Positions 6,359 to 64,000 of a stretch of 64,000 bases of DNA are shown piece after piece. The position numbers and the translations under genes were made by a program. The notes beneath the pieces are model-generated. The model was not told the DNA's origin. It ran no database searches and saw only the letters and a list, made by a program, of their open reading frames with translations. Within the stretch, counting starts at the first letter, position 1, and every line of letters begins with the position of its first letter. Source of the DNA: a bacterium (lineage in GTDB: Bacteria > Elusimicrobiota > Elusimicrobia > Elusimicrobiales > UBA9959); contig JAJYJH010000009.1 of NCBI GenBank assembly GCA_021789695.1, forward strand, positions 1,750-65,749, read 5' to 3'.

Positions 6359-6379
6359 GCGCCGGGCAAAGACCCAATC

Positions 6380-6396
6380 CATTACAAAACTGTAAT
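6380..6396. promoter_or_regulatory. CusR/HprR-type response-regulator box
   Basis: C-ATTACA-AAAC-TGTAAT palindrome, about 33 nt upstream of a TATACT -10 at 6429-6434. Confidence 0.7.
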
Positions 6397-6490
6397 CCCG
6401 CTGAAAGACTGGAGCAATGCTCCGGCTTTATACTTGTATAACAAGCTGGGAGCTGCCGCTCCTTAATAGGTATAAAGAATGGGAGGAAAA

Positions 6491-7069: not shown

Positions 7070-7109
7070 CGTAGCCGCGCCGCCGAAGACTGCACCACTG
7101 GAGATATTG

Positions 7110-8072: not shown

Positions 8073-8147
8073 CGCTCCAGGCCCGGCGGCGGCGACGGGC
8101 GGCGAAGCGGACTTTCTTCCCTCGATAATGCTTTAATATATATCGGG

Positions 8148-9023: not shown

Positions 9024-9047
9024 CCCTACTGACAAAAAGAGGAGAAC

Positions 9048-9851: not shown

Positions 9852-9865
9852 CTGGAGCGACGAGG

Positions 9866-14243: not shown

Positions 14244-15466
14244 GGCTTAATACCGTAGTGTCGATCGTGGCGATTCTCTTGTTCGCCGCAGGAGGGGCAC
14301 GGGCCGCAGACCTGAAGGAATGCCTGACGATGGCGACCGATAACAGCCCCGGGGTCAGGTCCTACGAAGAAAAACTTTCCGCCTCCATATCGGCCCAGAA
14401 AAGCGCTAAAAGATCGCTGCTCCCCGCACTCTCCGTCTCCGGAGATGACGGCTATTCCACCTATTCACGGGACTCGGGCCTGGACAACGGCATGACCGGG
14501 ACGCTGGGAGCCCAGTTGAACTGGGACCTGCCCAAAGTGCTGGCCGGCTACCAGCGCTTGGCCGGGCTGGAAACCGACAAGTCGCGCCTGCTGCTGGACA
14601 TAGCCAAGCGGACGCTGGCGCGCGACGTGGAGAAGGACTATTACAACCTGCACATACTTGCCGCAAAGAAGGCCGACTACGCGGAGGCCAAGGCCTACTT
14701 CCTTACCCACATAGCTTCGATAGAGGAACTAGGCGAACGCGGAGTGGACGTAAAACTGGACCTGCTTCACGCCAATATGCAGCTGCGCTCGCTCGGCGTG
14801 ACGGCCGACGGGGTGGAAACGGAACTAAAAAACGCGCTGACGTCCCTGAACTCGGCCACCGGCGGCGATTTTAATGATGGCGACTTCCCGTTCAAGGACA
14901 TACCGGTCCCCGTAGCCGGCCCCGTCCCGCAGGGACTAGCCGCTACGGCGCCGGAAACCAGGATGAACGACTTGGAGCTGAAGACCGCGGAGGAGAACTA
15001 CCGCCAGAGCGGCTTTTTCTACGCGCCCACGCTTAACTTCGGAGTGAATAAAGCCATTACCCCGATAGACCCGGCCACGGAACGCACGCGCACCTTCCTT
15101 GGCGTGACCTTGGACGTCTTCGATTTCGGCAGGCACATAGCCGACCGCAAAAGCCTGCTGGCGGAGCGCGAGGCGCAGCGGGCCGCCAACATCGAGAACC
15201 TGCGAAGGCTCAGGCTCTACATCGAGACGCTGAGGACCGGCATCGCTAACGCGGCGGCCATCTGCGCCGCGGCCGAAGCCGGTCTCTCCGACGCCGACAA
15301 GGCGATGAAGACGGCCGACGAGTACTACCGCCAGGGCAAGATTAAAGAAACGGACCTGCTGAGCGTGTTCAGCGACTACCTGGCCGCCAAGGAACAGGCG
15401 CGCAACGCCTTGGGGGACTATCTGGACAAGAAGAGCGACATGGACTACATCGAGGGCAACATATGA
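14240..15466 (+). CDS. TolC-family outer-membrane efflux protein
   Basis: ATG 14240 after a GGAG RBS; signal peptide; helical repeats with PALSVSG / PTLNFG strands and YRQG motif. Confidence 0.85.
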   Translation: MRLNTVVSIVAILLFAAGGARAADLKECLTMATDNSPGVRSYEEKLSASISAQKSAKRSLLPALSVSGDDGYSTYSRDSGLDNGMTGTLGAQLNWDLPKVLAGYQRLAGLETDKSRLLLDIAKRTLARDVEKDYYNLHILAAKKADYAEAKAYFLTHIASIEELGERGVDVKLDLLHANMQLRSLGVTADGVETELKNALTSLNSATGGDFNDGDFPFKDIPVPVAGPVPQGLAATAPETRMNDLELKTAEENYRQSGFFYAPTLNFGVNKAITPIDPATERTRTFLGVTLDVFDFGRHIADRKSLLAEREAQRAANIENLRRLRLYIETLRTGIANAAAICAAAEAGLSDADKAMKTADEYYRQGKIKETDLLSVFSDYLAAKEQARNALGDYLDKKSDMDYIEGNI

Positions 15467-45109: not shown

Positions 45110-48100
45110 ATGGACAACGAAAAAATAGCGATAGTCGGTCTCGGTATCATAGCCCCCAAGGCCCTCAATAAGGAACAGTTCTGGCAGAACGTGCTGGAGG
45201 GAAAGAACTGCATAACCGAGGTGCCGCAGGACCGCTGGGACTGGCGGCTCTACTATTCCGAGGACCGCAAAGCCGCCGACAAGACCTATTCCAAGATAGG
45301 CGGCTTTATTGAAGACTTCAAGTTCGATTCCATCAGATACAAGATCCCGCCGCAGAGCGCCGCGCAGATCTCGCGCCTCCAGCAGATGACGATAGAGGCG
45401 GTCCGCATGGCCCTGGAGGACGCCGGCTACGACGAAACTATCGCGGGTGCCGCATCAAAGGCCTCTGGCCAACAAACGGCCAAGAAGTCCTTTGATCCCA
45501 AGCGCACCGCGGCCGTGCTCGGCAACGCGATGGGCGCCAACCGCAAGGAGATGACCGACCTGCGCGTCTACAAGTTCTACAACGAGGACCTCATCAAGAA
45601 GACCTCCGTCTTCTCCGCGCTGCCTCGCGACAAGCAGGAGGCCCTGATAGCGGAGTTCGAGGCCGGCATAGACAACGGCATCATCAAGATCACCGAGGAC
45701 ACCATGCCCGGCGAGCTCTCCAACGTGACGGCCGGCCGCATAGCCAACGTCTTCAACCTCAACGGCCCCAACATGACGATGGACGCGGCCTGCGCCTCCT
45801 CCATGGCGGCGCTCGACTACGCGGTGCTTGGTTTGCGCGCCGGCAGATTCGACATGGCCGTGGCCGGCGGCGCCGACGAGATGATGAGCCCCGCCGCCTT
45901 CGTGAAGTTCTGCAAGATAGGCGCCCTGTCGGCCGACGGGTCCTACTCCTTCGACGAGCGGGCCAACGGCTTCGTGATGGCCGAGGCGGTCTCCATCTAC
46001 ATCCTCAAGCGCCTCTCCGACGCGGTCAGGGACGGCGACAAGATCTACGCGCTGATCAACGCGGTCGGCGCCTCCTCCGACGGCAAGGGCAAGGGCATCA
46101 CCGCCCCCAACCCGAAGGGCCAGAAGATAGCCATCGAGAACGCCTTTGAGCAGGTGGACTACGGCCCCGGCGAAGTGGATTTCGTCGAGGCGCACGGCAC
46201 CGCCACAAAGGTGGGCGACGCGGCCGAGGTGCAGGTGCTGCAAGAAGTGTTCGGTCCGCACATGGGCGGGGGCAAGAAGCTGGGCCTGACTTCCGTGAAG
46301 TCCCAGATCGGCCATTCCAAGGCCGCCGCCGGAGCGGTGTCCATGGCCAAGACGGCGCTCGCGATCTACAACAAGACGCTGCCTACCTCCATCAACTGCG
46401 TGAAGCTCAACCCCGGCATAGACCAGAACCTCTTCAAGGTCATCACCAAGGCCGAGCCGTGGGACAAGAACGGCCTGCGCCGCGCTAACGTATCCTCTTT
46501 CGGCTTCGGCGGCACCAACTTCCATGTACTGCTGGAGGAATACACCGGCCCGAACCACCCGCGCTACGCCAAGGCCGGCGCGGCCGTAGAGACGCCCGCC
46601 GCCGCCGTAGAGGTAGTGGAGAACCCGCGCGCACCCTTCGCCGGCCTGCAGGGCGAGGCCGTGACTTTCACCGGCAACACTCCGGAAGACGTCGTCAATA
46701 ACGCCAAGAAAGAAGCCGCCGCGGTCTTCGCCAAGTGGCCGGAAACATATCCTATGGCGACCTACACCCAGCCGTCGATGACGAAGGCCAAGGGTCCGTG
46801 GGGCGTATCCATCGTGGCGAAGTCCCCGAAGGACCTCGCCGAGAAGATAGAATTCATGGCCAAGAACGGCAAGGCCGGGACTTGGACCGAACCGCCGCTC
46901 AACTTCAAGCTGAAAGGCGTCTACACCTTCAAGACCGGCGTAAACCAGGCCAAGGTCGGTCTGCTGTTCCCCGGCCAGGGCTCGCAGTACGTCGACATGA
47001 TGCGCGACCTCGCCGCCAAGTACCAGGTGGTGCAGGCCACTTTTGACGAGGCCGACGTCATCCTGGAGAAGATGATAGGCATCAGGCTCACCGAGGCCAT
47101 CTGGAGCAAGCCCGGCGAGGGGAAAGAGGAACTGGCCAAGCGCGAAACCGCCATCAAGCAGACCCAGCTCACCCAGCCGTCCATGATGACGGCCGACATA
47201 GCGATGTACCGCCTGCTCAGGGAGTTCGGCGTGAAGCCGGACATGGCCATAGGCCACTCGCTCGGCGAGTACGCGGCCGCCACCGCGGCCGGCATTTTTA
47301 CCTTCGAGAACGGCCTGCGCGCCGTCACCAGCCGCGCCAAGGAAATGGCCAGCGTGAAAGTGGCCGACCCGGGCAAGATGGCCTCGGTCGCCCTCGGCTG
47401 CGACAAGGTCGACGCGGAGCTCAAGAAGATCGGCGGCTACGTCATCAGCGCCAACAAGAACTGCCCGCTGCAGACCGTCATAGCCGGCGAGGCGAAGTCC
47501 GTCGAACAGGCCGTGCAGCACTTCAAAGCGCTGGGCATCGAGGCGGGGGAGATACCGGTCAGCCACGCGTTCCATTCCGAGATAGTGGCGCCGGCCATGG
47601 GCCCTTACCGGAACTTCCTGCAGAACATCCCGATCAAGGCCGCGGACATGAAGATCCTATCCAACGTGACCGCCGACTTCTTCCCGACGGACCCGCAGGG
47701 CATCTACGACATGCTGATCAAGCAGATGACGAGCCCGGTGGAGTTCATAAAGCAGCTTGAACGCATGTACGACGAGGGCGTGCGCACTTTCATAGAATGC
47801 GGCCCTAAGCGAGTGCTCAGCGCGTTTGCCTCTTCGACGCTCAAGGACAAGCCGGAGCCGGTCACCATACTCGCTTCCAACCACCCGAAACGTGGCGGCA
47901 TCACCGAACTCAACGACCTGTTCGCCAACATGACGGCGCTTGGCATCCCGGTGAACTGGGACGGCAAGGTGCCGCAGCGGGGCGGGAAATTCTTCAACCC
48001 CTATTACCAGAACTGGGCGCTCAAGGCCACCGGGCAAATCCCAGTGTCCGCGCCGGCCTCCGCCGGCCAGGCCGCGCTTCCGGCCGATAAGGCGAGCTTC

Positions 48101-51100
48101 GCCGAGAAGTTCGGCTTCAACTTCAACCCGATAGCGGTCTCGGGCATAGCGGGCGGCACGCCCGGCACCTGGGACAAAATGTTCCGCGAGGCCAACCTCG
48201 ACGAGATCCTCGCCGGCAAGAACATGATAGAGCCCATCCCGGGCGAGTGGCGCGCGAAGCAGATAGACAAGAACATTATCCGCGTCGTGAAGTCCCCGAC
48301 GGGCAACCACAGCATCGAGAAGATAGATTCCGTGGACCAGGCCATAAAGCTGTCGGCGCGCGCCGGCCGCCTGGACATACAGGGTGAGTTCGGTCTGCCG
48401 AACACCGTCGCTAAGGCGCTGGATTCCACTTTCAAGATGGCCATAGCCGCCGGCGTGCTGGCCCTGAAGGACGCTGGCCTGCCGCTGATCCATTACTACA
48501 AGAAGACCACCACCGGGAGCTTTTTGCCCGAGAAGTGGGCGCTGCCCGAGCCGGTGGCCTCGGAGACCGGCGTGGTGTTCGCTTCGGCCTTCCCGGTGAC
48601 CGAGTCTCTGCTCCGCGAGGTCACCCATTACTTCAACTACAAGTACTCCGGCAAGACCGCGGCACAGCTGTGGAAAGTCTACCACAAGATCGTCGACAAG
48701 CTGCCAACCGAGGCCGACAAGGCCGGCCTGCGCGCCTGGCTGCAGAACGAGTTCGCGGGCTACCAGCCCGGCGAGGGCAAGGACCCGTACTCGTTCAGCC
48801 AGAACTTCCTGCTGAAGGTCATACCGATAGCGGACTCCCAGTTCGCCCAGTGGGTCGGCGCCAAGGGCCCGACGCTGCACGTCAGCGCGGCCTGCGCCTC
48901 CACCACGCAGGCGGTGCACCTGGCCGAGAGCTGGATACGCGCCGGCAAGTGCAAGCGCGTAGTCGTGATAGCCGCCGACGACATCACCAACGAGACCGTG
49001 CAGGAATGGACGATGCCCGGCTTCCTCGCCTCCGGCACCGCCACCACCAAGGAGAACGTCTCCGAGGCGGCACTGCCTTTCGACCGCCGCCGCCACGGCC
49101 TCATCGTGGGCTCCGGCGCCGTCGGTATGGTAGTCGAGGACGAGACACTAACACGCGGCCGCGGCATGAAGCCGCTCGCCCGCCTGCTCTTGACCGAGGC
49201 CGCCAACTCGGCCTTCCACGCCACGCGCCTCGACACCGAGCATGTGGCTTCCGTGATGTCCAACTTCGTGAAAAAGGTGGAGAACCTCTACGGCCTGAAG
49301 AAGGAAGAGATCGCGCCGTACACGATGTTCATGTCGCACGAGACCTATACCCCGGCCCGCGGCGGCTCCGCCTCGGCCGAGGTGAAGGCGCTGCGCCGGG
49401 CTTTCGGCGACGCCGCCGACAAGGTGGTGGTCAGCAACGTCAAGGGCTTCACCGGCCACACGATGGGCGCCTCGCTCGAGGACGTCATCGCCGTGCGCGC
49501 GCTGAACACCGGCATCATCCCGCCGATAGCCAACTATAAGGAACCCGACCCGGAACTCGCCGGCATCAATCTCTCTAAGGGCGGGCACTACGACCTGAAG
49601 TACGCCATACGCTTCGCCGCGGGCTTCGGCTCGCACATGGCCATGGCCATGACCGAGCGCGTCTGGCGGGCGGGGGAGAGCCGCTACGAGGACCAGGGCA
49701 GGTACAACGCCTGGGTCCGCGAGGTTTCCGGCGACCCGGCGGCCGAACTCGAAGTGGTGCAGAACACCCTGCGCGTGAAGGACAGGAAGACCGCCGGCAA
49801 GCCGGCCCACACCCCCGCCGCTCCCGCAAAGGAACCGGTGGCCGCGGCCGCCGCCCCGGCGCCGAAGCCGGCGCCGGGCGCCGCCGCCGCGCCGCAGCAT
49901 TACGCTGAGCCCAAGCCGGCCCCTGTCCACGCCCCGGCGCCCTCCGGTCTGGGCGAGGAGGCCGTGAAGGAAAACATCCTCGGGATGATCACCGAGAAAA
50001 CCGGCTACCCCAAGGATATGCTGGAGCTGGACCTCGACATGGAGGCCGACCTCGGCATAGACACCGTCAAGCAGGCCGAACTCTTCGCCGCGATGCGCGA
50101 GCACTACGCCATCCCGCGCCAGGAGAACGTCTCGCTCAAGGACTACCCGACCATACGCCACTGCATCAAGTTCGTCGTAGAGTCTAAAGGCGGAGCTGCC
50201 CCCGCGCCCGCCGCCGCGCCCGCCACGAAACCGGCGCCCGCGGCTGCCCCGCAGCATTATTCCGAGCCCAAGCCCGCCCCCGCGCCCGCCGCCACTTCGG
50301 CCGTCGGCGTTGACGATGAGTCCGTTAAGACGCAGATCCTCGGCATGATAGCCGAGAAGACCGGCTACCCCAAGGATATGCTGGAGCTGGACCTCGACAT
50401 GGAGGCCGACCTCGGCATAGACACCGTCAAGCAGGCCGAACTCTTCGCCGCGATGCGCGAGCACTACGCCATCCCGCGCCAGGAGAACGTCTCGCTCAAG
50501 GACTACCCGACCATACGCCACTGCATCAAGTTCGTCGTAGAGTCTAAAGGCGGAGCCGCCGCGGCCGTCGTCCAAGCCAAACCGGAGCAGCCGGACCTGC
50601 TGGACATCGGCGCGAAGCGGGAGGAGAAGCCTGTCTTGGCCGCGGCCGAAAAGCCGGCCAGGCAGGAATGGCCCAAGCGCCATATCCGCCACGTGCCTGT
50701 CGTGGTCGCGGCCCCGGTGGAGCAGGAGGTGATTAAAAAGATTTCCTCCAAGCGGCCTGTCGTCATCTTCGCCGAGGACCTGGACCTGGCGAAAGCCTTC
50801 CGCGCGGAGCTCAATAAGCACCGTGCCGACTCGTATATCTTCACCCCGGCCAAGACCAAAGTAAAAGACGCGATAACGGTGGACTTCCGCGACATGGCCG
50901 CCACCGAGAAGGCGCTCAAGGACTTCGCCGCCGAGCACCCCGATACGCAAGGCATCGTTTATCTGCCCGGCTGCATGGTGAAGTCGCTCTCGAAGGACAC
51001 CAGCGCTTTCGCGGACCTCAGGCGTTATGGCCTGCCGCTGTTCATGGCGGTAAAGTATCTAGCCGGAGGCCTGAACAGCCCTGAGGAGGGGCACTCCACC

Positions 51101-53149
51101 TTCATGGCCGTGGTCACCACGCTGGACGGCGGTTTCGGCTACAAGACCAGGGACGCCTACGATCCGGTCTACGGAGCCATCCACGGGCCGACGCTGTGCC
51201 TGCGCAAGGAGCTGGAGAAGAGCGCGGTGAAGTTGCTGGACTTCGAACCCAGCGCCTCCAATCAATTAATCGTCCAGAAGACCTTTTACGAGATCCTCTA
51301 TTCAGACAAACGCCTTGCCATCGGCTACGCCGACGGCAAACGTTGGACTCTGGTCGGCAAGCCCCAGGCGCTTGACAAGTCCCACCGCGCCGCGGAGCTG
51401 GAGGGGCGCAATGTCATAGTTACCGGCGGCGGGCGCGGCCTCGGCGCGATGTTCTCCAGGATGCTGGCCGAACAGCACAAGGCCAACGTCGTAATCCTGG
51501 ATATTATAGAGATAACCGAGGAAGCCAAGCGCCTCACCGGCATGGGCGAGACTGAGCTGAAAGCCTGGAAGATGGGAGAGCTCTGGAATAAGGTCAAGGC
51601 CACCAACGACAAGGCCACTCCAGCCATCCTGGAGAAGGAGTTTACCCGCCTGAAGGACGCGGCCGAGATGCACCGCAACCTGGAGGCGATACGTTCTCTC
51701 GGCGTGCAGGCACATTACTACCGCTGCGACCTCAGCAGCCCTGAGGCTATAGCCTCTGTCACTGCCAGCATCAAGGCCGATCTGGGCCAGGTGGACGGCC
51801 TGGTCCACTTCGCGGGGCTGGAGCGTTCCAAGCTCGCCGTAGACAAGGCCGTGGAGGAGTACACGCTGATTTTCAACGTGAAGGCCGACGCCGCCATTAA
51901 CCTGTGGAAGTCCGGGGTGGTAAAGGAAAAAGGTTTCTGGGCCATGGCCTCCTCGATAGCAGGCAAGTTCGGCAACGTCGGCCAGTCCGACTACGCCGCG
52001 GCCTCCGACTACATCGCGAAGTTCTGCGTCAGCCAGTCCAACCGCGGCGTGCACGCGGTCAGCGTGGACATGACTGGCTACGCGCAGATAGGCATGGGAG
52101 CCCGGCCGGGAGTAGAGGCCTTCCTGAAATCGCAGGAGATGGAGTTCCTTTACCCCGAGGAAGGCATGCAGGCTTTCCTCGACGAGATAGTTTACGGCAA
52201 GGTGCCGGAAATAATCCTCTCCGGCAGCCTGGGCAAACTGGACTGGGACCACCAGCTGCAGTACGAGCCGAACTTTTCCCCGTCCGGTTCAACCGGTTTC
52301 CATTTCGTACCGCGTCTGGACGACCTGCTGAAGGGGGAGATGCTGGCCGGGACTAAGGAATTCTCGCTGCAGTCAGACCCCTACCTGGCGGACCATTCCA
52401 TAAACGGCACCCCCTATGTGCCTGGCGTAATGGGTCTGGAGACTTTCGCCGAGGCCGCGGCGGTGCTGACCGGCAAGCCGCCGAAGGCGCTAACCGACGT
52501 GCGCTTCGCGGTGCCGATAAAACTGCTGCGCAACAGGGCCGCAGAGGTGAACATAAAGGCCGAGGCCGTCGACGAGACCGTAGAAATGAGGCTGGAGTCT
52601 GACTTCGTCAGCCCCAAAGGCCTGCGCCTGGGTCAGACCCGCACGCATTTCAAGGCGGTTGCGGCCCAGGACGCCTCTTCCGGCTGGACGCCGGATATGC
52701 GCCCGCGCCTGCCTAAGTCCAGGAAATACAGGACCGAGGCCGCGGTAATCTACAAGACCTATTTCCACGGGCCGAGTTTCCAGGTGCTCGACGGAGTTTT
52801 GTCGTTGGACAAGAGTTCGGTACTGGCGGTCTTCAAGCGCCCGCAGACCCCGCTGTGGAAGGAGACGCATCCGAAGCTGGTCTTCCACCCGCTGGTCTTC
52901 GAGGCGCTGTTCCAGGCCTGCGGCTGGCGCGACATACAGTTCGACAGGACCATGGCCCTGCCGGACGCGATAGGCGCGGCCGTAGCATACGATCATGAAC
53001 CGCTGGACCCGGAGACGCTGTTCCTCTACGGAGTCTTCAAGGGGCGCACAGAAGACAACCGCAGCCTCTACGACGCGTGGGCCTTTGACGAGGACTTCAA
53101 CCTCTTCGCCGAGCTGCGCGACTATGCGATGATCCCGACCCCCATCTGA
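45110..53149 (+). CDS. Iterative type I PKS/FAS megasynthase, PfaA-like: KS-AT-KS-ACP-ACP-KR-DH
   Basis: KS1 DAAC / HGTAT / QIGH; AT GHSLG and HAFH; KS2 SAAC / HETYT / FTGH; two ACPs LGIDTVKQ; KR TGGGRGLG and QSDYAAA; DH HSINGTPYVP and FEALFQ. Confidence 0.93.
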   Translation: MDNEKIAIVGLGIIAPKALNKEQFWQNVLEGKNCITEVPQDRWDWRLYYSEDRKAADKTYSKIGGFIEDFKFDSIRYKIPPQSAAQISRLQQMTIEAVRMALEDAGYDETIAGAASKASGQQTAKKSFDPKRTAAVLGNAMGANRKEMTDLRVYKFYNEDLIKKTSVFSALPRDKQEALIAEFEAGIDNGIIKITEDTMPGELSNVTAGRIANVFNLNGPNMTMDAACASSMAALDYAVLGLRAGRFDMAVAGGADEMMSPAAFVKFCKIGALSADGSYSFDERANGFVMAEAVSIYILKRLSDAVRDGDKIYALINAVGASSDGKGKGITAPNPKGQKIAIENAFEQVDYGPGEVDFVEAHGTATKVGDAAEVQVLQEVFGPHMGGGKKLGLTSVKSQIGHSKAAAGAVSMAKTALAIYNKTLPTSINCVKLNPGIDQNLFKVITKAEPWDKNGLRRANVSSFGFGGTNFHVLLEEYTGPNHPRYAKAGAAVETPAAAVEVVENPRAPFAGLQGEAVTFTGNTPEDVVNNAKKEAAAVFAKWPETYPMATYTQPSMTKAKGPWGVSIVAKSPKDLAEKIEFMAKNGKAGTWTEPPLNFKLKGVYTFKTGVNQAKVGLLFPGQGSQYVDMMRDLAAKYQVVQATFDEADVILEKMIGIRLTEAIWSKPGEGKEELAKRETAIKQTQLTQPSMMTADIAMYRLLREFGVKPDMAIGHSLGEYAAATAAGIFTFENGLRAVTSRAKEMASVKVADPGKMASVALGCDKVDAELKKIGGYVISANKNCPLQTVIAGEAKSVEQAVQHFKALGIEAGEIPVSHAFHSEIVAPAMGPYRNFLQNIPIKAADMKILSNVTADFFPTDPQGIYDMLIKQMTSPVEFIKQLERMYDEGVRTFIECGPKRVLSAFASSTLKDKPEPVTILASNHPKRGGITELNDLFANMTALGIPVNWDGKVPQRGGKFFNPYYQNWALKATGQIPVSAPASAGQAALPADKASFAEKFGFNFNPIAVSGIAGGTPGTWDKMFREANLDEILAGKNMIEPIPGEWRAKQIDKNIIRVVKSPTGNHSIEKIDSVDQAIKLSARAGRLDIQGEFGLPNTVAKALDSTFKMAIAAGVLALKDAGLPLIHYYKKTTTGSFLPEKWALPEPVASETGVVFASAFPVTESLLREVTHYFNYKYSGKTAAQLWKVYHKIVDKLPTEADKAGLRAWLQNEFAGYQPGEGKDPYSFSQNFLLKVIPIADSQFAQWVGAKGPTLHVSAACASTTQAVHLAESWIRAGKCKRVVVIAADDITNETVQEWTMPGFLASGTATTKENVSEAALPFDRRRHGLIVGSGAVGMVVEDETLTRGRGMKPLARLLLTEAANSAFHATRLDTEHVASVMSNFVKKVENLYGLKKEEIAPYTMFMSHETYTPARGGSASAEVKALRRAFGDAADKVVVSNVKGFTGHTMGASLEDVIAVRALNTGIIPPIANYKEPDPELAGINLSKGGHYDLKYAIRFAAGFGSHMAMAMTERVWRAGESRYEDQGRYNAWVREVSGDPAAELEVVQNTLRVKDRKTAGKPAHTPAAPAKEPVAAAAAPAPKPAPGAAAAPQHYAEPKPAPVHAPAPSGLGEEAVKENILGMITEKTGYPKDMLELDLDMEADLGIDTVKQAELFAAMREHYAIPRQENVSLKDYPTIRHCIKFVVESKGGAAPAPAAAPATKPAPAAAPQHYSEPKPAPAPAATSAVGVDDESVKTQILGMIAEKTGYPKDMLELDLDMEADLGIDTVKQAELFAAMREHYAIPRQENVSLKDYPTIRHCIKFVVESKGGAAAAVVQAKPEQPDLLDIGAKREEKPVLAAAEKPARQEWPKRHIRHVPVVVAAPVEQEVIKKISSKRPVVIFAEDLDLAKAFRAELNKHRADSYIFTPAKTKVKDAITVDFRDMAATEKALKDFAAEHPDTQGIVYLPGCMVKSLSKDTSAFADLRRYGLPLFMAVKYLAGGLNSPEEGHSTFMAVVTTLDGGFGYKTRDAYDPVYGAIHGPTLCLRKELEKSAVKLLDFEPSASNQLIVQKTFYEILYSDKRLAIGYADGKRWTLVGKPQALDKSHRAAELEGRNVIVTGGGRGLGAMFSRMLAEQHKANVVILDIIEITEEAKRLTGMGETELKAWKMGELWNKVKATNDKATPAILEKEFTRLKDAAEMHRNLEAIRSLGVQAHYYRCDLSSPEAIASVTASIKADLGQVDGLVHFAGLERSKLAVDKAVEEYTLIFNVKADAAINLWKSGVVKEKGFWAMASSIAGKFGNVGQSDYAAASDYIAKFCVSQSNRGVHAVSVDMTGYAQIGMGARPGVEAFLKSQEMEFLYPEEGMQAFLDEIVYGKVPEIILSGSLGKLDWDHQLQYEPNFSPSGSTGFHFVPRLDDLLKGEMLAGTKEFSLQSDPYLADHSINGTPYVPGVMGLETFAEAAAVLTGKPPKALTDVRFAVPIKLLRNRAAEVNIKAEAVDETVEMRLESDFVSPKGLRLGQTRTHFKAVAAQDASSGWTPDMRPRLPKSRKYRTEAAVIYKTYFHGPSFQVLDGVLSLDKSSVLAVFKRPQTPLWKETHPKLVFHPLVFEALFQACGWRDIQFDRTMALPDAIGAAVAYDHEPLDPETLFLYGVFKGRTEDNRSLYDAWAFDEDFNLFAELRDYAMIPTPI
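50000..50556 (+). repeat. Tandem ACP duplication, 360-nt period
   Basis: 50000-50196 is identical to 50360-50556 (197 nt); the linker motif PQHY(A/S)EPKPAP is also duplicated. Confidence 0.95.
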
Positions 53150-55619: not shown

Positions 55620-57059
55620 ATGAATCTCCCCATAAAATTGCTCACCACTGCAGTAGCTGTCCCGGTGTTCGGCGCGTTCCTGATACCGTTCGCCAGCCGG
55701 GTGTCCAATTCAGCCCGGAACGCCTTCGCGGTGCTCCTGGGCCTGTTCACTTTCGCGGCGGTGGCCTCCCTGCTGCGCCCGGTGCTGGAGGGGAGCACGG
55801 TGGATTATATCATCAGCTTCCCTCGCGGCTTCGACCTGATACTGCACGCCGACCTGCTCTCGGTCTTCATGGCGACAGTTTCCTCCTTTGTCAGCGCGAT
55901 AATCCTGATTTACTCGCTTGACTACATCTCGCACTACGACAACCAAACCGAATACTACACGATGGTGGTATTTTTCCTCGGCTCTATGATGGGTCTGGTG
56001 TTTTCCGCCAACCTGCTGTGGATGTACGTGTTCTGGGAAATGACCGGTTTCGCGAGTTGGAGGCTGGTGGGCTTCTTCCGCTCTGACCGCGACGTCGCCA
56101 AGGCCAACAAGACCATACTTGTCACCGTCTTCGGCGCGCTTTGCATGCTGATAGGCATAATAATGATTTACACCAACTACGGCACGCTGGACCTGCGCGC
56201 GCTGCACGGACAGGCCATCACTTTCACGGCGGCCGCCTTCATCCTGGCGGGCATCCTCTCCAAGTCCGCCACGCTGCCGTTCTCCACCTGGCTGCCGGAC
56301 GCCGGCGTGGCTCCCTCCACGGTGACCTCCCTGCTGCACGCGGCCGTGCTGGTAAAGATCGGCGTTTACGCTTACGCCCGCATTTTCGGCGTCACGTTCG
56401 CCGCGCCCGAGGCCTTCTCCATGATGGTTCTCTATATAACCGGGGCCAGCGCGCTGATCTCGGCCGGCGCCGCCCTGGTCGAGACCGACATCAAGAGGAT
56501 AATCGCCTACTCCACTATAAGCCAGCTGGCGTTCATTTTCCTGGGCCTGGCCTCCGGCAACAAGACCGCCTTCATCGGCGCCATCCTATACATCCTGATG
56601 CACAGCGTGGCCAAGGGGGGGCTGTTCCTCTGCGCCGGTATCATTGAGCAGAAGACCCACACTAAGGACATCAACCGGATGGGCGGCCTGTTCCGCTCGA
56701 TGCCGGTCACCGGTTCCGCCTTCGCGCTCTGCTCCCTGTCCATCATGGGCATCCCGCCCTTCGGCGGCTTCTTCGGCAAGTATCTGGTCTTTGCCGGCGC
56801 CGCGCAGAACGGCAGCCTTGGCGTGCTGCTGATGTTCCTCTTCGGAGCCATGATGACCCTGCTCTACCTGGTCCGCCTGTTCTACAAGATATTCCTGGGC
56901 GAGCCCGCCGGCCACGAGAACCCGAAAGAAGGCTCCTACACGATGGTCGCCAGCGTGATGGCCCTCGCCCTCATCAGCCTGGCCCTCGGCGCCTTAATCT
57001 ACTACCCGGCCAGTTACGCCGGCCTCCTCACCACCACCCTAGGAGTGAACCTGCAATGA
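55620..57059 (+). CDS. Antiporter-like subunit (NuoL/MrpA-type core, no lateral helix)
   Basis: FWEMTG, KSATLPFSTWLPDA, LLHAAVLVKIG, HSVAKGGLF, GFFGK. Confidence 0.9.
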   Translation: MNLPIKLLTTAVAVPVFGAFLIPFASRVSNSARNAFAVLLGLFTFAAVASLLRPVLEGSTVDYIISFPRGFDLILHADLLSVFMATVSSFVSAIILIYSLDYISHYDNQTEYYTMVVFFLGSMMGLVFSANLLWMYVFWEMTGFASWRLVGFFRSDRDVAKANKTILVTVFGALCMLIGIIMIYTNYGTLDLRALHGQAITFTAAAFILAGILSKSATLPFSTWLPDAGVAPSTVTSLLHAAVLVKIGVYAYARIFGVTFAAPEAFSMMVLYITGASALISAGAALVETDIKRIIAYSTISQLAFIFLGLASGNKTAFIGAILYILMHSVAKGGLFLCAGIIEQKTHTKDINRMGGLFRSMPVTGSAFALCSLSIMGIPPFGGFFGKYLVFAGAAQNGSLGVLLMFLFGAMMTLLYLVRLFYKIFLGEPAGHENPKEGSYTMVASVMALALISLALGALIYYPASYAGLLTTTLGVNLQ

Positions 57060-58921
57060 ACCTGATACTGATACCGATATTCCTCCCGCTGGCGACTGCC
57101 GCGGCCGTCCTGCTGATAAACGAGAAGACGAAGTACCTGAAGGAGATCCTCTCCTCGGCCGCGGCGCTGGTGGCGCTGCTGGCAGCTGGCGACATCTTCC
57201 TGCAGCTGCCTGCGGAACAGCATCTCTCGTTGCCGTGGATCAGCGCCGGGCTCAGTTTCACGCTGCGGGCGGACGCACTCAGCGCTTTTCTGCTGCTGGC
57301 TGTCTCACTGTTCTCTGCGGCCATTTCGATCTACTCTTTCAGCATGCCCGACAAGGGCTCCTCAAAGTGGTTCTTCTTCAACCTGCTAATGACGCAGGCC
57401 TTCGCCGCCGGAGCAGCGCTGGCGGACAGCCTGCTGGTCATGCTGTTCTTCTGGGAAGGGCTGCTGGTGTTCCTCTATACCTTCATCATCCTCTCTCAGG
57501 ACGCCCCGGGGGCGCGCCGCACGGCCAAGAAGGCCTTCCTCATAAACGGCGTCACCGACCTCTGCCTGCTCGTTGGCATAACCATCACCGGCTATATCGC
57601 CGGCACCATGAACATGTCGGAGATAGCGCGCAACAAGCTGACGCTGGACTATGGCTGGTCCGTGTTCGCCTACGTGCTGCTGATGATCGGCGCGGTCTCC
57701 AAGGCCGGGGCCATGCCGTTCCATACCTGGATTCCCGACGCCGCCACCAATTCCAGTTCGCCGTTCATGGCCTACATCCCGGCGGCCATAGACAAGCTGC
57801 TCGGGATCTATTTCCTGGCCCGCGCGAGCATCTACCTTTACCAGCTCAACGGCGCCATGTCGATAGTACTCATGACGCTGGGCGCGTTCACGATCCTGGC
57901 GGCAGTGATGATGGCCTTCGTGCAGAAGGACTACAAGCGGCTGCTCTCCTACCACGCGGTCAGCCAGACCGGGTACATGATACTCGGAATAGGCACGCTG
58001 AACCCCATAGGTATAGCCGGCGGCCTGTTTCACATGATAAACCACGCCACCTACAAGTCCTGCCTGTTCATGACGGCGGGCTCCGTGGAGCGGCGGACCG
58101 GAACGAACGACCTTACCAAGCTGGGAGGGCTCTTCCGCCTGATGCCGCTCACCGCCATTTTCTTCCTGATAGCGGCCGCGGCCATCTCCGGCATAGCGCC
58201 CTTCAACGGTTTCTTCTCCAAGGAGCTCGTCTACCGCGGCGCGCTAGACAGCGGCCACCCGATCTTCTTCTGGGCGGCAGAGCTCGGCTCCTTCCTGACA
58301 CTGGCCTCGTTCCTCAAGCTGGGCCACTCCGTCTACTTCGGCAGGCTGCCGGAGAACCTCAAGAACACCAAGGAGGCTCCGTTCTCCATGCTGCTGCCGA
58401 TGGCATCCTTAGCCGCCATCTGCGTGCTCTTCGGCTTCGGCGCGCACTTGCCGCTTGAGCGCTTTATCAGTCCGGCCCTCAGCTCGATTGGCGTCCAGCA
58501 CGGTGAGTTGGCCGGTTTTGAGGCGGGCAAGTTGTACTTTCTCTCGGTCATAGTCATACTGGCCGCGGTCATCAACCATATGTTGGGCCTGGCCGCCGGC
58601 GGGGGGAAGGCGAGCAAAGCCTCCGACCACATCCATTACGCCCCGGTGCTAAAGCAAGCCTACGCGATGGCGGAGAACAGGGTCTTCGACATCTACGAGC
58701 TCGGCATGGACAAGGTAGTGCCGGTGGTGGCGAAAGTGATGTTCAGCGTCGACCGCTTCTTCGACTGGGTCATAGATACGGCGCCCAGCTCGGCCGCGGG
58801 GTTCTTCAGCGACGCCTCGGAGCGCTTTCATAACGGCTCCTACCCGCTCTACATGGCCCTCACGCTGGCCGGGGCCGCAGTGTACATCCTGTTAGCGGCG
58901 CTCAACGGAGGGTTGAAATAA
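57056..58921 (+). CDS. Antiporter-like subunit with NuoL-type C-terminal extension
   Basis: FWEGL, KAGAMPFHTWIPDA, INHATYKSCLF, GFFSKE; long amphipathic tail ending in a TM. Confidence 0.9.
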   Translation: MNLILIPIFLPLATAAAVLLINEKTKYLKEILSSAAALVALLAAGDIFLQLPAEQHLSLPWISAGLSFTLRADALSAFLLLAVSLFSAAISIYSFSMPDKGSSKWFFFNLLMTQAFAAGAALADSLLVMLFFWEGLLVFLYTFIILSQDAPGARRTAKKAFLINGVTDLCLLVGITITGYIAGTMNMSEIARNKLTLDYGWSVFAYVLLMIGAVSKAGAMPFHTWIPDAATNSSSPFMAYIPAAIDKLLGIYFLARASIYLYQLNGAMSIVLMTLGAFTILAAVMMAFVQKDYKRLLSYHAVSQTGYMILGIGTLNPIGIAGGLFHMINHATYKSCLFMTAGSVERRTGTNDLTKLGGLFRLMPLTAIFFLIAAAAISGIAPFNGFFSKELVYRGALDSGHPIFFWAAELGSFLTLASFLKLGHSVYFGRLPENLKNTKEAPFSMLLPMASLAAICVLFGFGAHLPLERFISPALSSIGVQHGELAGFEAGKLYFLSVIVILAAVINHMLGLAAGGGKASKASDHIHYAPVLKQAYAMAENRVFDIYELGMDKVVPVVAKVMFSVDRFFDWVIDTAPSSAAGFFSDASERFHNGSYPLYMALTLAGAAVYILLAALNGGLK

Positions 58922-60354
58922 TGGACAAAGGACTTCTGGCGTATCTTCTCATCCCGCTTCTAAGCGCGGTGCTGATACCCTTCGCCGCGCGCGGCCGCCG
59001 GCGTCTGGCCGACGTTATAGCCAACGTTACGCTGCTGGCCGGCCTGGCCAACCTGGCCTGGCTGGTACTGCGCCCGTCCATGATCTCCGGCGGCTTCGCC
59101 GACATCCCCGGCGACGGTTTCACGCTGCTGTTAGTAGGAACCGTCTACCTGGTGGGCTTCTGTGTCACGTTCTTCTCAGCCTGGTTCATGGAGGACGGCG
59201 CCCCTAACAGACAGGCCTACTACTCGCTCATTCTGGTCTCCGTTGCGGCAATGACCGGGGTGGTCAGCGCCACCGACTTCTTCACGCTGTACGTTTTTAT
59301 AGAGGTCCTGGCGGTCACGTCCTTCGCGCTGATAACCACGGACGATTCCGGGCGCGGCGTGGAGGGCGCACTGAAGTACTTCTTCCTGACCTTCCCGGCC
59401 TCCGCGCTGATCATCCTCGGCATCTCTATACTGATGCTGACGCTTGGCAGCCTCTCCTTCGACAACCTGCGCATCTTCATGGCTTCCGGGATCCCCTCAT
59501 CCGGTCCAGTCACTTTCGGCGCAGCGCTTATGCTGTTGGGCTTCCTGATAAAATCCGGCGTGGCGCCTTTCCACACGTGGACCCCCGACGCTTACCAGGG
59601 CGCCTACGCTCCCGTCTCGGCGCACCTGGCAGGCATAGTCACGAAGATATCCGGAGTCTACGCGGTGATTCGCATGGCCGCTCTGCTTCGCTTCTTCGAC
59701 GGCCGCGCGCTTGCGCTCTCAGACCTGCTGATGTTCCTCGGCATGCTGTCCATCGCGGTGGGCGCGGTAGCCGCGCTGAGGCAAAAGGACTTCAAGCGTA
59801 TGCTGGCCTTCTCCAGCGTCAGCCAGGTGGGCTATATCGTTCTGGCGGCAGGACTCGGCACGCCGTTGGCCATAATGGGCGCTATCTTCCACCTCTTTAA
59901 CCACGCGACGTTCAAGACCGTGCTGTTCCTCAACAGCGCGAGTCTGGAGAAATCGGCGGGCACTACCGACATGGAGAAACTGGGAGGAATGGAACACGCG
60001 ATGCCCTGGACCTCGTGGACCTCGGTGGTGGCGCTGCTCTCCACCGCGGGCGTCCCGCCGCTCTCCGGGTTCTGGAGCAAACTGCTCATCATCATCGCGC
60101 TGTGGCAGGCCGGGCTCAGAACCTACGCCGTGCTGGCCCTCCTGTTCAGCATAGTGACCCTCGCCTACTTCATGGTGATGCAGAGGAAGGTCTTCTTCGG
60201 GAAGAGGTCCAGGGCCGCTGAAGTTTCCACCGAAGTCCCGGCCCCAATGCTGGCCCCTGCCGTATTGATGAGCGCGCTGATAGTGGCGCTGGGCCTGCTG
60301 TTCCCGTACTTCTACACCTACGTTAGGATGGTGGCCGAAAGGATACTGATATGA
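58921..60354 (+). CDS. Antiporter-like subunit (NuoM/N, MrpD/MbhH-type)
   Basis: FIEVLA, EGALKY, IKSGVAPFHTWTPDAY, NHATFK, GFWSK. Confidence 0.9.
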   Translation: MDKGLLAYLLIPLLSAVLIPFAARGRRRLADVIANVTLLAGLANLAWLVLRPSMISGGFADIPGDGFTLLLVGTVYLVGFCVTFFSAWFMEDGAPNRQAYYSLILVSVAAMTGVVSATDFFTLYVFIEVLAVTSFALITTDDSGRGVEGALKYFFLTFPASALIILGISILMLTLGSLSFDNLRIFMASGIPSSGPVTFGAALMLLGFLIKSGVAPFHTWTPDAYQGAYAPVSAHLAGIVTKISGVYAVIRMAALLRFFDGRALALSDLLMFLGMLSIAVGAVAALRQKDFKRMLAFSSVSQVGYIVLAAGLGTPLAIMGAIFHLFNHATFKTVLFLNSASLEKSAGTTDMEKLGGMEHAMPWTSWTSVVALLSTAGVPPLSGFWSKLLIIIALWQAGLRTYAVLALLFSIVTLAYFMVMQRKVFFGKRSRAAEVSTEVPAPMLAPAVLMSALIVALGLLFPYFYTYVRMVAERILI

Positions 60355-60842
60355 CGAACGACTACCGCACCCTGCTCTACGCGCTGGCGGTCTTCTTCTC
60401 GCTCTGGGCTGTGATCTCAAGGAAACTGCTAATCTCGGCGATAATGCTGGCCCTCGTCAGCGTCTTGGTCTCGCTGATTTTCTTCGACTTTGGAGCCCCG
60501 TGGGCCGGCGTTTTTGAGCTCTCGGTCTGCGCCGGACTTATAACCGTGCTGTTCGTGAGCGCGGTCAGCCTGATTCGCGCCGAGGAGGAAAAGCACCCCG
60601 AGAGCCGCGCCCGCTTCTACGCGCTGCCGCTGGCCGCCGCCATCTTCGCGATAGCCGGCTGGTTCTATCTGCCGCAGTTCTTCGCGGAGATAGCAGGCTG
60701 GACGCGCCCAAGCACCGGGGGCGGTACAATAGGGCTCGCCCTGTGGGATATGCGCCGCCCGGACTTGCTGGGCCAGGTGCTGATGCTGGCCGCCGGCGTC
60801 TTCGTGATAAAATCAATCTTTCCCAGGAGGAGCGAGAAATGA
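60351..60842 (+). CDS. NuoJ-like membrane subunit
   Basis: About five TMs; APWAGVFELSVCAGLITVL; IGLALW..RRPDLLGQ. Confidence 0.75.
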   Translation: MTNDYRTLLYALAVFFSLWAVISRKLLISAIMLALVSVLVSLIFFDFGAPWAGVFELSVCAGLITVLFVSAVSLIRAEEEKHPESRARFYALPLAAAIFAIAGWFYLPQFFAEIAGWTRPSTGGGTIGLALWDMRRPDLLGQVLMLAAGVFVIKSIFPRRSEK

Positions 60843-61144
60843 ACTCTTTCCCGATGGAGTGGTACTTTACGGCCCTGATGATGTTCGTAGGTTTTTACTG
60901 TATGCTAGCCTCCCGCAGCATAGTGCGGCAGCTGATAGGCCTGGAAATAATCTCCAAGGGCGCGATGCTGGCGCTGCTCTCGGCAGGGGCGCTGGCGAAC
61001 AACCTGGTCTTCGCGCAGGCCCTGGTGCTTACGCTGATAGTCATAGAGGTGGTCGTCGTGGGGGCCGGCCTCGCGCTGCTGGTCAAGAACTTCCGAGTCA
61101 ACGGCACCACCGACATCTGGAAGCTCGACAGCCTCAAAGGATAA
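60839..61144 (+). CDS. NuoK/MnhC-like membrane subunit
   Basis: Three TMs; IGLEII and IVIEVVV glutamates; ATGA overlap. Confidence 0.8.
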   Translation: MNSFPMEWYFTALMMFVGFYCMLASRSIVRQLIGLEIISKGAMLALLSAGALANNLVFAQALVLTLIVIEVVVVGAGLALLVKNFRVNGTTDIWKLDSLKG

Positions 61145-61148
61145 AGCC

Positions 61149-61484
61149 ATGGACATATTGCTATTCCCTCCGGTCGCGTTCATTATCTCGCTCTTGTTCG
61201 TGATGGGGCTTTCGGCGATTCTCTCCCCGCTATCCGCCAAGCCGGCCCGGATACCGGGCTCGGCCAAACACAAGGCGTACGGCTGCGGCGAGGAGGTCCC
61301 GTCGGAAAAGGCCATCCCGGACTATCAGGTCTTCTTTCCATTCGCGATTTTCTTCACGCTGCTGCACGTGGCCGGCCTGATGCTGGCGACCTGGAGTTTC
61401 AATCCGCTCTCCTCAGGCGTGGGGCTGGTGATAGGCTACGCGGCGGCGGTGATCGTAATCCTCGCCATTCTCTTCGTGGGATAA
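61149..61484 (+). CDS. NuoA-like membrane subunit
   Basis: TM, KHKAYGCGEE loop, then FFPFAIFF plus two TMs. Confidence 0.75.
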   Translation: MDILLFPPVAFIISLLFVMGLSAILSPLSAKPARIPGSAKHKAYGCGEEVPSEKAIPDYQVFFPFAIFFTLLHVAGLMLATWSFNPLSSGVGLVIGYAAAVIVILAILFVG

Positions 61485-61488
61485 CAAC

Positions 61489-61926
61489 ATGAAAACATTC
61501 GATAAACTCGTGACCTGGGCGCTGCTGAAATCCCCCTGGATCCTCCACTTTAATTCCGGGGCCTGCAACGGTTGCGACATCGAGATAGTGGACGCGCTGA
61601 CCCCGAAGTACGACGTGGAACGTTTCGGCATGGTACTGAAGGCCACGCCGCGCCACGCGGACATCCTGGTGGTCAGCGGCCCGGTCACTCGCCAGCAGGC
61701 CAAACGCCTTAAAACCATCTACGACCAGATGCCGGACCCCAAGTTCGTGATGGCCGTAGGCGCCTGCGGCTGTTCCGGAGGCGTCTTTAACGGCTGCTAC
61801 GGCGTAATCCCGGGCGTGGACAAGACCCTGCCGGTCTCCGTCTACATCCCGGGCTGCCCGGTGCGCCCCGAGGCCATCATAGACGGCGTCGTAAAGTTGA
61901 TCCAGAGCGTGGAAGGCAAGAAGTAA
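61489..61926 (+). CDS. Group 4 hydrogenase small subunit (NuoB/EchC-like)
   Basis: GACNGCDIE, PRHAD, GACGCSGG, PGCPVRP. Confidence 0.95.
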   Translation: MKTFDKLVTWALLKSPWILHFNSGACNGCDIEIVDALTPKYDVERFGMVLKATPRHADILVVSGPVTRQQAKRLKTIYDQMPDPKFVMAVGACGCSGGVFNGCYGVIPGVDKTLPVSVYIPGCPVRPEAIIDGVVKLIQSVEGKK

Positions 61927-61936
61927 GGAGGACTCG

Positions 61937-62413
61937 ATGGGCGAATTTGAGAAGGAAGAAAAGATAAAGTCCGCGCTGGAGAAACAGTTCGGCGGGGCGG
62001 TCTTCAACGCCTCCGTTCAGCGCAGGAACCGCGTCTGGGCGGAGGTGGAGCCCTCGAAGCTCCCCGAGGTCATGGCCTGGCTGAAAGCCGAAGGTTTCAA
62101 CCACCTGGCCACAATCTCCGGTTTCGACGAGGGGGAGAATCTGGGCGCCTACTACCACACGACGGACTTCAAGACGGTGGTGAATGTAAAGGCGAAAACC
62201 CCGCGCGCCAACCCCGTCCTCCCGTCCACGCTTTCCGTGTTCCCCGGGGCGCTCTCCTACGAGCGCGAGCTGGAGGACATGTTCGGGATAAAGATCCAGG
62301 GACTGCCGGCCGGCCGCCGCTACCCGCTGCCGGAAGACTTCCCCACGGACCAGTATCCCCTGCGCAAGGACTGGAAGTTCGTCCCGCCCGCAGACGGAAC
62401 GGAGGCCGAATAA
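61937..62413 (+). CDS. NuoC/EchD-like subunit
   Basis: FNHLATISGFD, YERELEDMFG, PLRKD. Confidence 0.9.
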   Translation: MGEFEKEEKIKSALEKQFGGAVFNASVQRRNRVWAEVEPSKLPEVMAWLKAEGFNHLATISGFDEGENLGAYYHTTDFKTVVNVKAKTPRANPVLPSTLSVFPGALSYERELEDMFGIKIQGLPAGRRYPLPEDFPTDQYPLRKDWKFVPPADGTEAE

Positions 62414-63606
62414 TGTCCAAGATCACGATACCGCTGGGCCCCCAGCACCCCGCCCTGAAAGAGCCGGAGAACTTCATGCTCGTCCTAGAGGGAGAGCAGA
62501 TTTCTGGAGCCACGGTCAATCTGGGCTACAACCACCGCGGCATGGAGAAGGCCGCAGAGGAGCGCACCTACATACAGGACCTGTACCTGCTGGAGCGCGT
62601 CTGCGGCATCTGCTCCCATTCTCACACCACCTGTTACATCACCAACGTAGAGGAGCTCGCCAAGTGTGAGACGCCCAAGCGGGCCCTCGCGATACGCACG
62701 CTCGTGGCCGAGCTCGAGCGCGTGCACAGCCACCTGCTGTGGCTCGGCGTGGCCGGCTACGAGATGGGCTTCGAGACGCTGTTCATGTACACCTGGCGCG
62801 ACCGAGAGCAGGTGCTCGACTGCCTGGAGCTCATCAGCGGCAACCGCGTGCATTATTCCATCAACACGATAGGCGGCGTGCGCCGCGACATCACGGCCGA
62901 ACAGAAGGCCGAGGTCCTGAAGCGCATAGACTACCTGGCCGAGCGCACCAACTACTACATCAGGCTGGCCACCGAGGAGGCCACCGTGCTGGCCCGCACG
63001 CAGAACGTCGGCAAGCTGCCTTACGACGTCGCGATAGAGCGCGGCGCGATAGGCCCCACCGCTCGCGCCTCCGGAGTGGCGCGGGACGTCCGCAAGAACG
63101 AGCCTTACCTGACCTACAGTGAACTGGACTTCAAGTTGATAACCGCGGACTCCTGCGATGTCTTCGGCCGCCTGGTAGTGCGCGCGCTGGAACTGGTGGA
63201 GTCCTACAAGATAATCAGGCAGGTGCTCAACAACCTCCCCGAGGGCCCCACAGCGGTGAAGGTGCCGATGCGTATTCCCGCCGGCGAGGCAGTCAACCGC
63301 TACGAGGCCCCGCGCGGGGAGGACATCCACTACCTGAAGTCAAACGGCACCGACAAGCCGGAGCGCGTGAAAGTGCGAGCTCCCACGCTGGCCAACCTGC
63401 AGAGCGTGGCCTACATGCTCGAGGGCGGCTGGCTGGCTGACGTCCCGCTCGTGATAGCGGCCATAGACCCGTGCATGTCCTGCACGGACCGCGCCGTGGT
63501 ATGGGACCCGAAGAAGGGCAGGAAGCAGACCTATGGCTGGGAAGACCTGCGCAAGATGGCCATAGAGCAGTACAGGCGCCGCGGCGTGGACTTCACGAGG
63601 CTTTGA
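62413..63606 (+). CDS. Group 4 [NiFe]-hydrogenase large subunit
   Basis: L1 ERVCGICSHSH; L2 DPCMSCTDR followed by a C-terminal extension; EAPRGE, VRAPT. Confidence 0.95.
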   Translation: MSKITIPLGPQHPALKEPENFMLVLEGEQISGATVNLGYNHRGMEKAAEERTYIQDLYLLERVCGICSHSHTTCYITNVEELAKCETPKRALAIRTLVAELERVHSHLLWLGVAGYEMGFETLFMYTWRDREQVLDCLELISGNRVHYSINTIGGVRRDITAEQKAEVLKRIDYLAERTNYYIRLATEEATVLARTQNVGKLPYDVAIERGAIGPTARASGVARDVRKNEPYLTYSELDFKLITADSCDVFGRLVVRALELVESYKIIRQVLNNLPEGPTAVKVPMRIPAGEAVNRYEAPRGEDIHYLKSNGTDKPERVKVRAPTLANLQSVAYMLEGGWLADVPLVIAAIDPCMSCTDRAVVWDPKKGRKQTYGWEDLRKMAIEQYRRRGVDFTRL

Positions 63607-63615
63607 GGAAACGAC

Positions 63616-64000
63616 ATGGAAGCGATAATACCTCTGGCGAAGATTATACTGTTCCCGGGTTTTCTGTTCCTGGCCGTGTACGGGCTGTTCCTGCAATGGG
63701 TGGACAGGAAGCTCTGCGCGGTGATGCAGAACCGCATGGGCCCGCCCTGGTTCCAGCCGGCGGCGGACTTCATAAAGCTGCTGGCCAAAGAAGTAATAGT
63801 CCCCGACGCCGCGGAGGCGGCGATGTTCCGCGTGCTGCCGTTCTTCGCGATGGCGGCCGTTATGACGGCCCTGGTGGCCATACCGGTCGGTTCTTCGGCA
63901 CTTTTTAGTTTCCAGGGCGACCTGGTAGCCGTCATTTATCTGCTGACGATTCCCACGGTCACGTTCTTTCTGGCGGGCTGGAGTTCCACTAGCCCCTACG
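63616..64000 (+). CDS. NuoH/EchB-like subunit (truncated by window end)
   Basis: MEAIIPL...DRKLCAVMQNRMGPPWFQPAADFIKLLAKE; frame open to the end of the window; not in the ORF track. Confidence 0.92.
   Translation, partial: MEAIIPLAKIILFPGFLFLAVYGLFLQWVDRKLCAVMQNRMGPPWFQPAADFIKLLAKEVIVPDAAEAAMFRVLPFFAMAAVMTALVAIPVGSSALFSFQGDLVAVIYLLTIPTVTFFLAGWSSTSPY

Follow-up and report, generated by a model that had tools for sequence, protein, structure and literature searches.

The 64,000-nucleotide stretch analysed here (the window; part of contig JAJYJH010000009.1 of an Elusimicrobiota genome) encodes a PfaA-like lipid megasynthase. A ketosynthase (KS1), an acyltransferase (AT), a second ketosynthase stretch (KS2), tandem acyl carrier protein (ACP) domains, a ketoreductase (KR) and a dehydratase (DH) follow one another in a single open reading frame (ORF), with genes for an Sfp-type 4'-phosphopantetheinyl transferase (PPTase; P0002) and a carboxyltransferase next in line (Table 1). 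Attachment of phosphopantetheine to a conserved Ser is the accepted rule for the carriers of fatty-acid, polyketide and non-ribosomal peptide synthesis, and a Ser-to-Thr change serves as a null mutation in Escherichia coli ACP. Both ACP domains of the window synthase have Thr at this site, as do all the homologues that we examined.

The site is encoded within GAC ACC GTC at 50060-50068 and again at 50420-50428, and both ACP copies read MEADLGIDTVKQAELF, the two being identical over 197 bp (50000-50196 = 50360-50556). Pfam recognizes a PP-binding domain (PF00550) at residues 1742-1803 with 31.8 bits against a cut-off of 20.8. HMMER alignment to solved ACPs places the Thr on the Ser of DS(L/I/V) in PigH (5y08; aligned motifs DLGVDSIALAE and DLGIDSVSVAS), AcpM (2koo) and Aquifex ACP (2ehs). 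An AlphaFold model of the ACP, built with 25 family sequences (mean pLDDT 92.7), has helices at 3-18, 39-53 and 69-79, with Thr39 opening helix II, and matches dozens of solved ACPs with TM-scores of 0.75-0.89 and root-mean-square deviations of 1.4-2.4 Å. The window domains have an ordinary ACP fold, and it is Thr that occupies the canonical site: Thr1652 and Thr1772 stand at the start of helix II, where the canonical residue is Ser. A preliminary description of the window had reported Thr codons in both ACPs, no substitute Ser nearby, otherwise intact catalytic motifs and a PPTase directly downstream. All of this holds: the ACC codons lie exactly where it put them, none of the domain's positions has a conserved Ser among 608 copies, the KS1, AT, KS2 and DH motifs are all readable in the translation, and the PPTase gene starts 4 nt past the synthase stop.

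Table 1. Features of the synthase locus in the window, and the fused archaeal synthase (positions within its own locus)
Feature	Position	Strand	Basis and remarks
Type R megasynthase ORF, 2679 aa as assembled	45110..53149	+	KS-AT-KS2-ACP-ACP-KR-DH; ORF translation and Pfam
KS1 domain, residues 4-480, Cys in DAACASS	45119..46549	+	PF00109, PF02801; motif from translation
Acyltransferase, residues 619-930, GHSLG and HAFH	46964..47899	+	PF00698, E 4e-43; motifs from translation
KS2 ('CLF' in Shulse & Allen), residues ~1001-1570	48110..49819	+	Second ketoacyl-synt stretch, Pfam
ACP domain 1, residues 1614-1693	49949..50188	+	PDB alignments and AlphaFold model
ACC, Thr1652 at phosphopantetheinyl Ser position	50063..50065	+	Sequence, alignments, model
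ACP domain 2, residues 1734-1813	50309..50548	+	PF00550; near-copy of ACP1
ACC, Thr1772 at phosphopantetheinyl Ser position	50423..50425	+	Sequence, translation
Ketoreductase, residues 2102-2322	51413..52075	+	PF08659, E 1e-26
PKS-type (polyketide synthase-type) dehydratase, residues 2415-2679, HSINGTPYVP	52352..53146	+	PF21089; motif from translation
Sfp-type 4'-phosphopantetheinyl transferase (P0002), 216 aa	53154..53804	+	PF01648, PF17837; Sfp alignment
Carboxyltransferase, acyl-CoA carboxylase β type, 543 aa	53835..55466	+	PF01039, E 5e-179
G001 fused synthase, L109 (G001:C1:105000-121000; same as L070)	4968-14411		PPTase at C-terminus

A search with the ACP region returned 5701 proteins among 8000 scored candidates, and in the best 120 homologues, which were examined for the motif, 610 of 610 ACP repeats have Thr. 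Because this search chose its candidates by shared words, which might favour Thr, the test was repeated through the KS2 domain alone. Here an alignment (A1) and the patterns [VMI]SHET[YF]TPA and [AST]N[TV]KG[FY]TGH matched at least 597 species genomes, from which 80 loci were kept, and the motifs downstream of KS2 were counted with a pattern open to any residue at the site. In these 80 genomes picked by KS2, 240 of 240 ACP repeats have Thr and none has Ser. All four Thr codons are in use (ACC 132, ACG 82, ACA 15 and ACT 11), and Ser is one base away from every one of them yet was never seen; judged from these sequences, Thr is kept by selection in the family. The surrounding motif LEADLG[VI]DTVKQAE is invariant in the 608 copies anchored on Thr, whereas KS2 identity to the window ranges from 44 to 97% in 118 homologues and is just 44-57% across phyla. 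The hosts named in the records are Elusimicrobiota, Acidobacteriota, Chloroflexota, Myxococcota, Calditrichia, Verrucomicrobiia, Dormibacterota, Acidimicrobiia and Thermoplasmatota, all of them metagenome-assembled genomes (MAGs) in which single assignments may be wrong.

The preliminary description had suggested such a motif search and had cautioned that homologues might carry Ser, or that one mutation might lie behind both copies; the uniform Thr across many phyla removes that caution. The identity of the two repeats over 197 bp, and a repeat region that is probably mis-assembled in copy number, are what one would expect if the Thr were a strain-specific mutation, a sequencing or assembly error or a sign of gene decay, with one change copied into both repeats. 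We give this explanation almost no chance. Thr recurs in every homologue examined and in four codons, the long ORF is intact with all its catalytic motifs, and the ACP core recurs letter for letter in independent Logan unitigs from two sequencing runs (X1 and X2); strain-specific mutation and decay are ruled out by the family counts.

The number of ACPs is a separate matter. In run X1, probably the source sample, the word depth of the 147-bp ACP core unitig (50050-50196) is 89.7 against about 20 for the flanks, and the linker unitigs have depths of 50.6 and 75.5, values that are suggestive only, as unitig depth sums all organisms sharing the exact words. A relative whose KS2 is 97% identical (P0004) has five ACPs against the two in the window, and many related contigs break off inside the ACP repeats. 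Four or five ACPs have probably collapsed into the two of the window during assembly, and the true protein is likely to be about 3000 aa long.

The locus belongs, on its domain order, its neighbouring genes and the hosts of its relatives, to the Type R secondary lipid synthases. These were described as a single pfaA homologue with the order KS-malonyl acyltransferase-chain length factor (CLF)-ACP(3-6)-KR followed by a PPTase gene, from Koribacter, Solibacter, Elusimicrobium minutum and Roseiflexus (Acidobacteria, Elusimicrobia and Chloroflexi; Shulse & Allen 2011, PLoS One 6:e20146, PMC3098273). That paper handles the domains as ordinary ACPs, and the word threonine does not occur in it; our literature search found no later work on Type R. 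The window shares with Type R the pfaA-homologue order with KS2, the downstream PPTase and relatives in the Elusimicrobia, Acidobacteria and Chloroflexi, and differs from the published members in showing two ACPs as assembled, probably after collapse, rather than three to six. Its close relatives (loci L004-L083) include an E. minutum MAG, Acidobacteriota and Anaerolineae; L009, the locus from the E. minutum MAG, shares 78% identity with the window in KS2. KS2 has SHETYTP in place of the usual HGTGT; this stretch does not vary between phyla and was used as a search pattern specific to the family. It keeps the active-site Cys (AACAST) and both His, and also contains GFTGHT.

Like the PfaA/PfaE system (TIGR02813), the window locus has an iterative-type KS-AT-tandem ACP-KR-DH arrangement, in which the ACP repeats are near-identical, and an Sfp-type PPTase of its own, and the ACPs of both share TGYP...DLxxDLGID-x-[IV]K (PfaA motif LGIDSIKRVEIL). 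In contrast to the window synthase, PfaA has Ser at the site, its ACPs follow the AT with no KS2 in between, and it depends on PfaB, PfaC and PfaD; the window synthase scores 772.3 bits against TIGR02813, under the cut-off of 1010.1. No PfaB, PfaC or PfaD gene is adjacent to it, and the window operon also holds no enoyl reductase or thioesterase gene.

Ser-type ACPs with nearly the same motif exist in other synthases. The motif with Ser in place of Thr (DLG[VI]D-S-VKQAE, Ser codons TCN) was sought in 241 million metagenome records and turned up at 10 loci (L084-L093), all of them classical Pfa-like synthases without KS2. Their ACPs (motif DLEADLGIDSVKQAE; TGYPxxxLxxDLDLEADLGIDSVKQAE) are the nearest Ser-type ACPs and form sister rows to the Thr clade, with helix I-II motifs near-identical to those of the window apart from Ser versus Thr. 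Unlike the window synthase, these loci encode an AT-ACPn-KR-DH protein followed by KS-CLF in the next gene, and their ACPs and ATs are only about 45% and 31% identical to those of the window. When 73 ACP domains were placed in a maximum-likelihood tree, a single branch (support 93/90) set the 54 Thr domains apart, with one change in 98% of bootstrap trees, and the Thr clade sits nested among Ser-type Pfa ACPs, although with 80 columns the alignment is short and the deeper order is unsure. A single Ser-to-Thr switch from Ser-type Pfa ACPs would suffice to produce this pattern.

The PPTase has the architecture and the catalytic residues of the Sfp type. P0002 combines PF17837 (4PPT_N, residues 47-106) with PF01648 (ACPS, residues 113-167), and its ISHSG, GADME and WTIKEAVLK motifs align to Sfp (1qr0/4mrt). 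Among 42 linked PPTases, P0002 included, the residues matching Sfp H90, D107, E109, W147, E151 and K155 are invariant; the catalytic Asp is preceded by C, I, A, V, L or F. The gene lies directly downstream of the synthase in all Elusimicrobiota loci with enough flank, and nearby in other phyla. Across 101 Elusimicrobiota genomes, all 32 with a KS2-type synthase have a P0002-like PPTase, and 62 genomes have neither.

Six further PPTase-positive Elusimicrobiota genomes, all of one genus, gave no KS2 match. The two that we inspected (L106 = G045:C4:300000-318000, positions 6951-15482; L108 = G024:C13) hold a shortened KS-AT-ACP-KR-DH synthase, whose single ACP reads MEAELGIDTVKQAEM, again with Thr, and which is followed by the PPTase and a carboxyltransferase. 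This variant nests within the Elusimicrobia Thr clade of the ACP tree, and its KS2 has probably been lost secondarily. As the KS2-less synthase also has Thr together with the PPTase, Thr goes with the PPTase and not with KS2. In the genome of the first (G045; 1.2 Mb, 98% complete) the synthase Thr-ACP is the sole PF00550 hit at E <= 0.001, and AcpP was not detected.

In a Thermoplasmatota MAG (G001, 2.3 Mb) synthase and PPTase are one protein: a 3147-aa ORF has the order KS-AT-KS2-four Thr-ACPs-KR-DH and ends in C-terminal 4PPT_N and ACPS domains. The fusion contains the only PF01648 hit of this genome, and its four Thr-ACPs are the only PF00550 hits. At this locus the synthase gene lies between a carboxyltransferase gene (upstream) and one for a BioY biotin transporter (downstream). 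A megasynthase of fatty-acid or polyketide type is unusual for an archaeon, and the host is that given in the MAG record. Enediyne polyketide synthases (PKSE), which are iterative and related to polyunsaturated fatty acid (PUFA) synthases, have the order KS-AT-ACP-KR-DH-PPTase with a single Ser-type ACP and a built-in PPTase, and are not known to have KS2; the archaeal fusion is of the same kind, PKSE being compared by description only. Of the earlier proposal, that a specialised PPTase places the arm on Thr, the link between PPTase and synthase stands, being conserved up to this natural fusion. Of the specialisation no sign was seen: the 42 linked enzymes have the ordinary Sfp catalytic residues, and no family-specific substitution was noticed among them.

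The Thr-ACPs might instead never be modified. They would then be pseudo-carriers for scaffolding or docking, with the synthase using AcpP or CoA thioesters in trans and the PPTase serving other clients. We consider this unlikely, although it is the main rival. Several findings speak for it, and most of them weigh against a modified Thr. The E. coli mutant ACP(S36T) "cannot be post-translationally modified by 4'-PP" and gives no complementation (PMC3340395), so that AcpS-type chemistry, at least, rejects Thr; the same change at the same position is a non-functional mutant there and the conserved natural state in Type R. Aligning the 42 linked PPTases and comparing them with Sfp revealed no Thr-specific signature, a crude test that leaves room for one. 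The window genome (2.45 Mb, 95.7% complete) encodes two PPTases, an AcpS-type enzyme and P0002, and one Ser carrier, AcpP (DLGADSLDT); AcpP and AcpS fit the rival, yet so short a list of enzymes and carriers also speaks for the use of the Thr sites. In several gut Elusimicrobiaceae, further Ser carriers (about 1850 aa) exist as possible PPTase clients. One genome (G093; L110, G093:C5) lacks a Thr synthase yet retains a P0002-like PPTase-carboxyltransferase pair, and encodes a classical PfaA of the Ser type at another place. Other limits fall on the modified-Thr reading itself. The papers searched contain no reports measuring modification of the Thr site, and the gene is not covered by three metatranscriptomes of the same study, in which none of its sampled words occur. 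MAG incompleteness, finally, weakens arguments from an only PPTase or only carriers.

A further genome (G075; L111, G075:C40) has both a Type R and a classical Ser-type Pfa synthase, the latter with the same ACP motif as that of G093 (LGIDSIKRVEIL), and its only PPTases are AcpS and the Sfp-type enzyme adjacent to Type R; if Thr is modified, this PPTase may take Ser as well as Thr. We had considered as a general rule that the PPTase lacks a Ser client: this holds for the window genome and G001, and fails in gut Elusimicrobiaceae, G075 and G093.

Against unmodified pseudo-carriers stands, above all, the constancy of the residue: one without function would not remain invariant in about 850 copies with Ser, Ala and others one step away. 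The tandem arrays of 2-7 near-identical copies also match the throughput logic of working PUFA ACPs. Moreover, the PPTase accompanies the synthase in 32 of 32 Elusimicrobiota genomes and is fused to it in G001, where no other carrier domain or PPTase was found.

It is very improbable that intermediates are borne as oxoesters on the Thr hydroxyl, or on another residue, with no phosphopantetheine arm. The Thr hydroxyl is the one on offer in a domain without conserved Ser or Cys, which is what such carriage would use. However, the Cys-His-His set that goes with thioester substrates is retained in both KS domains, buried active sites would lie out of reach of an armless residue where helix II begins, and the conserved PPTase would be left unexplained. 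We know of no precedent for armless oxoester carriage on an ACP Thr.

The third gene of the conserved block, the carboxyltransferase, probably has a role in malonyl-CoA supply. Every Elusimicrobiota locus with sufficient flank has it next after the PPTase. Koribacter has an acetyl-CoA carboxylase gene between synthase and PPTase (PMC3098273), and in an acidobacterial locus (L040, 14841-20438) the same place is taken by a eukaryote-like single-chain acetyl-CoA carboxylase of 1865 aa (biotin carboxylase-biotin carboxyl carrier protein-ACC_central-carboxyltransferase). The presence of a whole carboxylase inside the cluster suggests that it carries its own malonyl-CoA supply. Upstream of the window synthase lie a PMT_2 glycosyltransferase and cytochrome bd genes, and downstream of the carboxyltransferase a complex-I-like/hydrogenase block (window 55620-64000), which opens with antiporter-like (Proton_antipo_M) genes in the first two genes scanned.

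The best reading of the Thr site is a working one, in which phosphopantetheine is linked to Thr by the co-encoded Sfp-type PPTase. From the invariance of Thr in the homologues and the conserved PPTase linkage, extending to a natural fusion, we infer that attachment to Thr is probable, if well short of secure. With marginally less assurance we extend this to the whole PfaA-like clade: O-(4'-phosphopantetheinyl)-threonine would be a natural modification on every tandem ACP in at least about 600 species genomes of Elusimicrobiota, Acidobacteriota, Chloroflexota, Myxococcota, other bacterial phyla and Thermoplasmatota archaeal MAGs, set by Sfp-type PPTases inherited together with the synthases and able to use Thr, perhaps also Ser. 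Thr-linked phosphopantetheine was not found described in the literature searched, a search whose scope left out much subscription literature.

Under this proposal the iterative PfaA-like megasynthase, the Sfp-type PPTase and the carboxylase component would work as one lipid-synthase locus. The acceptor residue of every tandem ACP would be a Thr that replaced the Ser of Pfa ACPs in a single event and has been selected since. The PPTase would move 4'-phosphopantetheine from CoA onto the Thr hydroxyl through the usual Mg2+ and Glu chemistry, and the thiol arm would then bear malonyl and acyl intermediates, as in a PUFA synthase or polyketide synthase. Thr may be favoured because it insulates the carriers from AcpS or ACP phosphodiesterase, or because its phosphodiester is more resistant to β-elimination.

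If Thr is indeed the attachment site, a new protein modification would be on record, Sfp-type PPTases would have a wider substrate range than is known today, and annotation rules that demand Ser would need correction. The natural carrier/PPTase pair might in that case also serve orthogonal labelling or pathway insulation. For the organisms themselves, the finding points to an uncharacterised pathway of lipid synthesis that is abundant in soil Acidobacteria, gut and groundwater Elusimicrobia, Chloroflexi and marine archaea.

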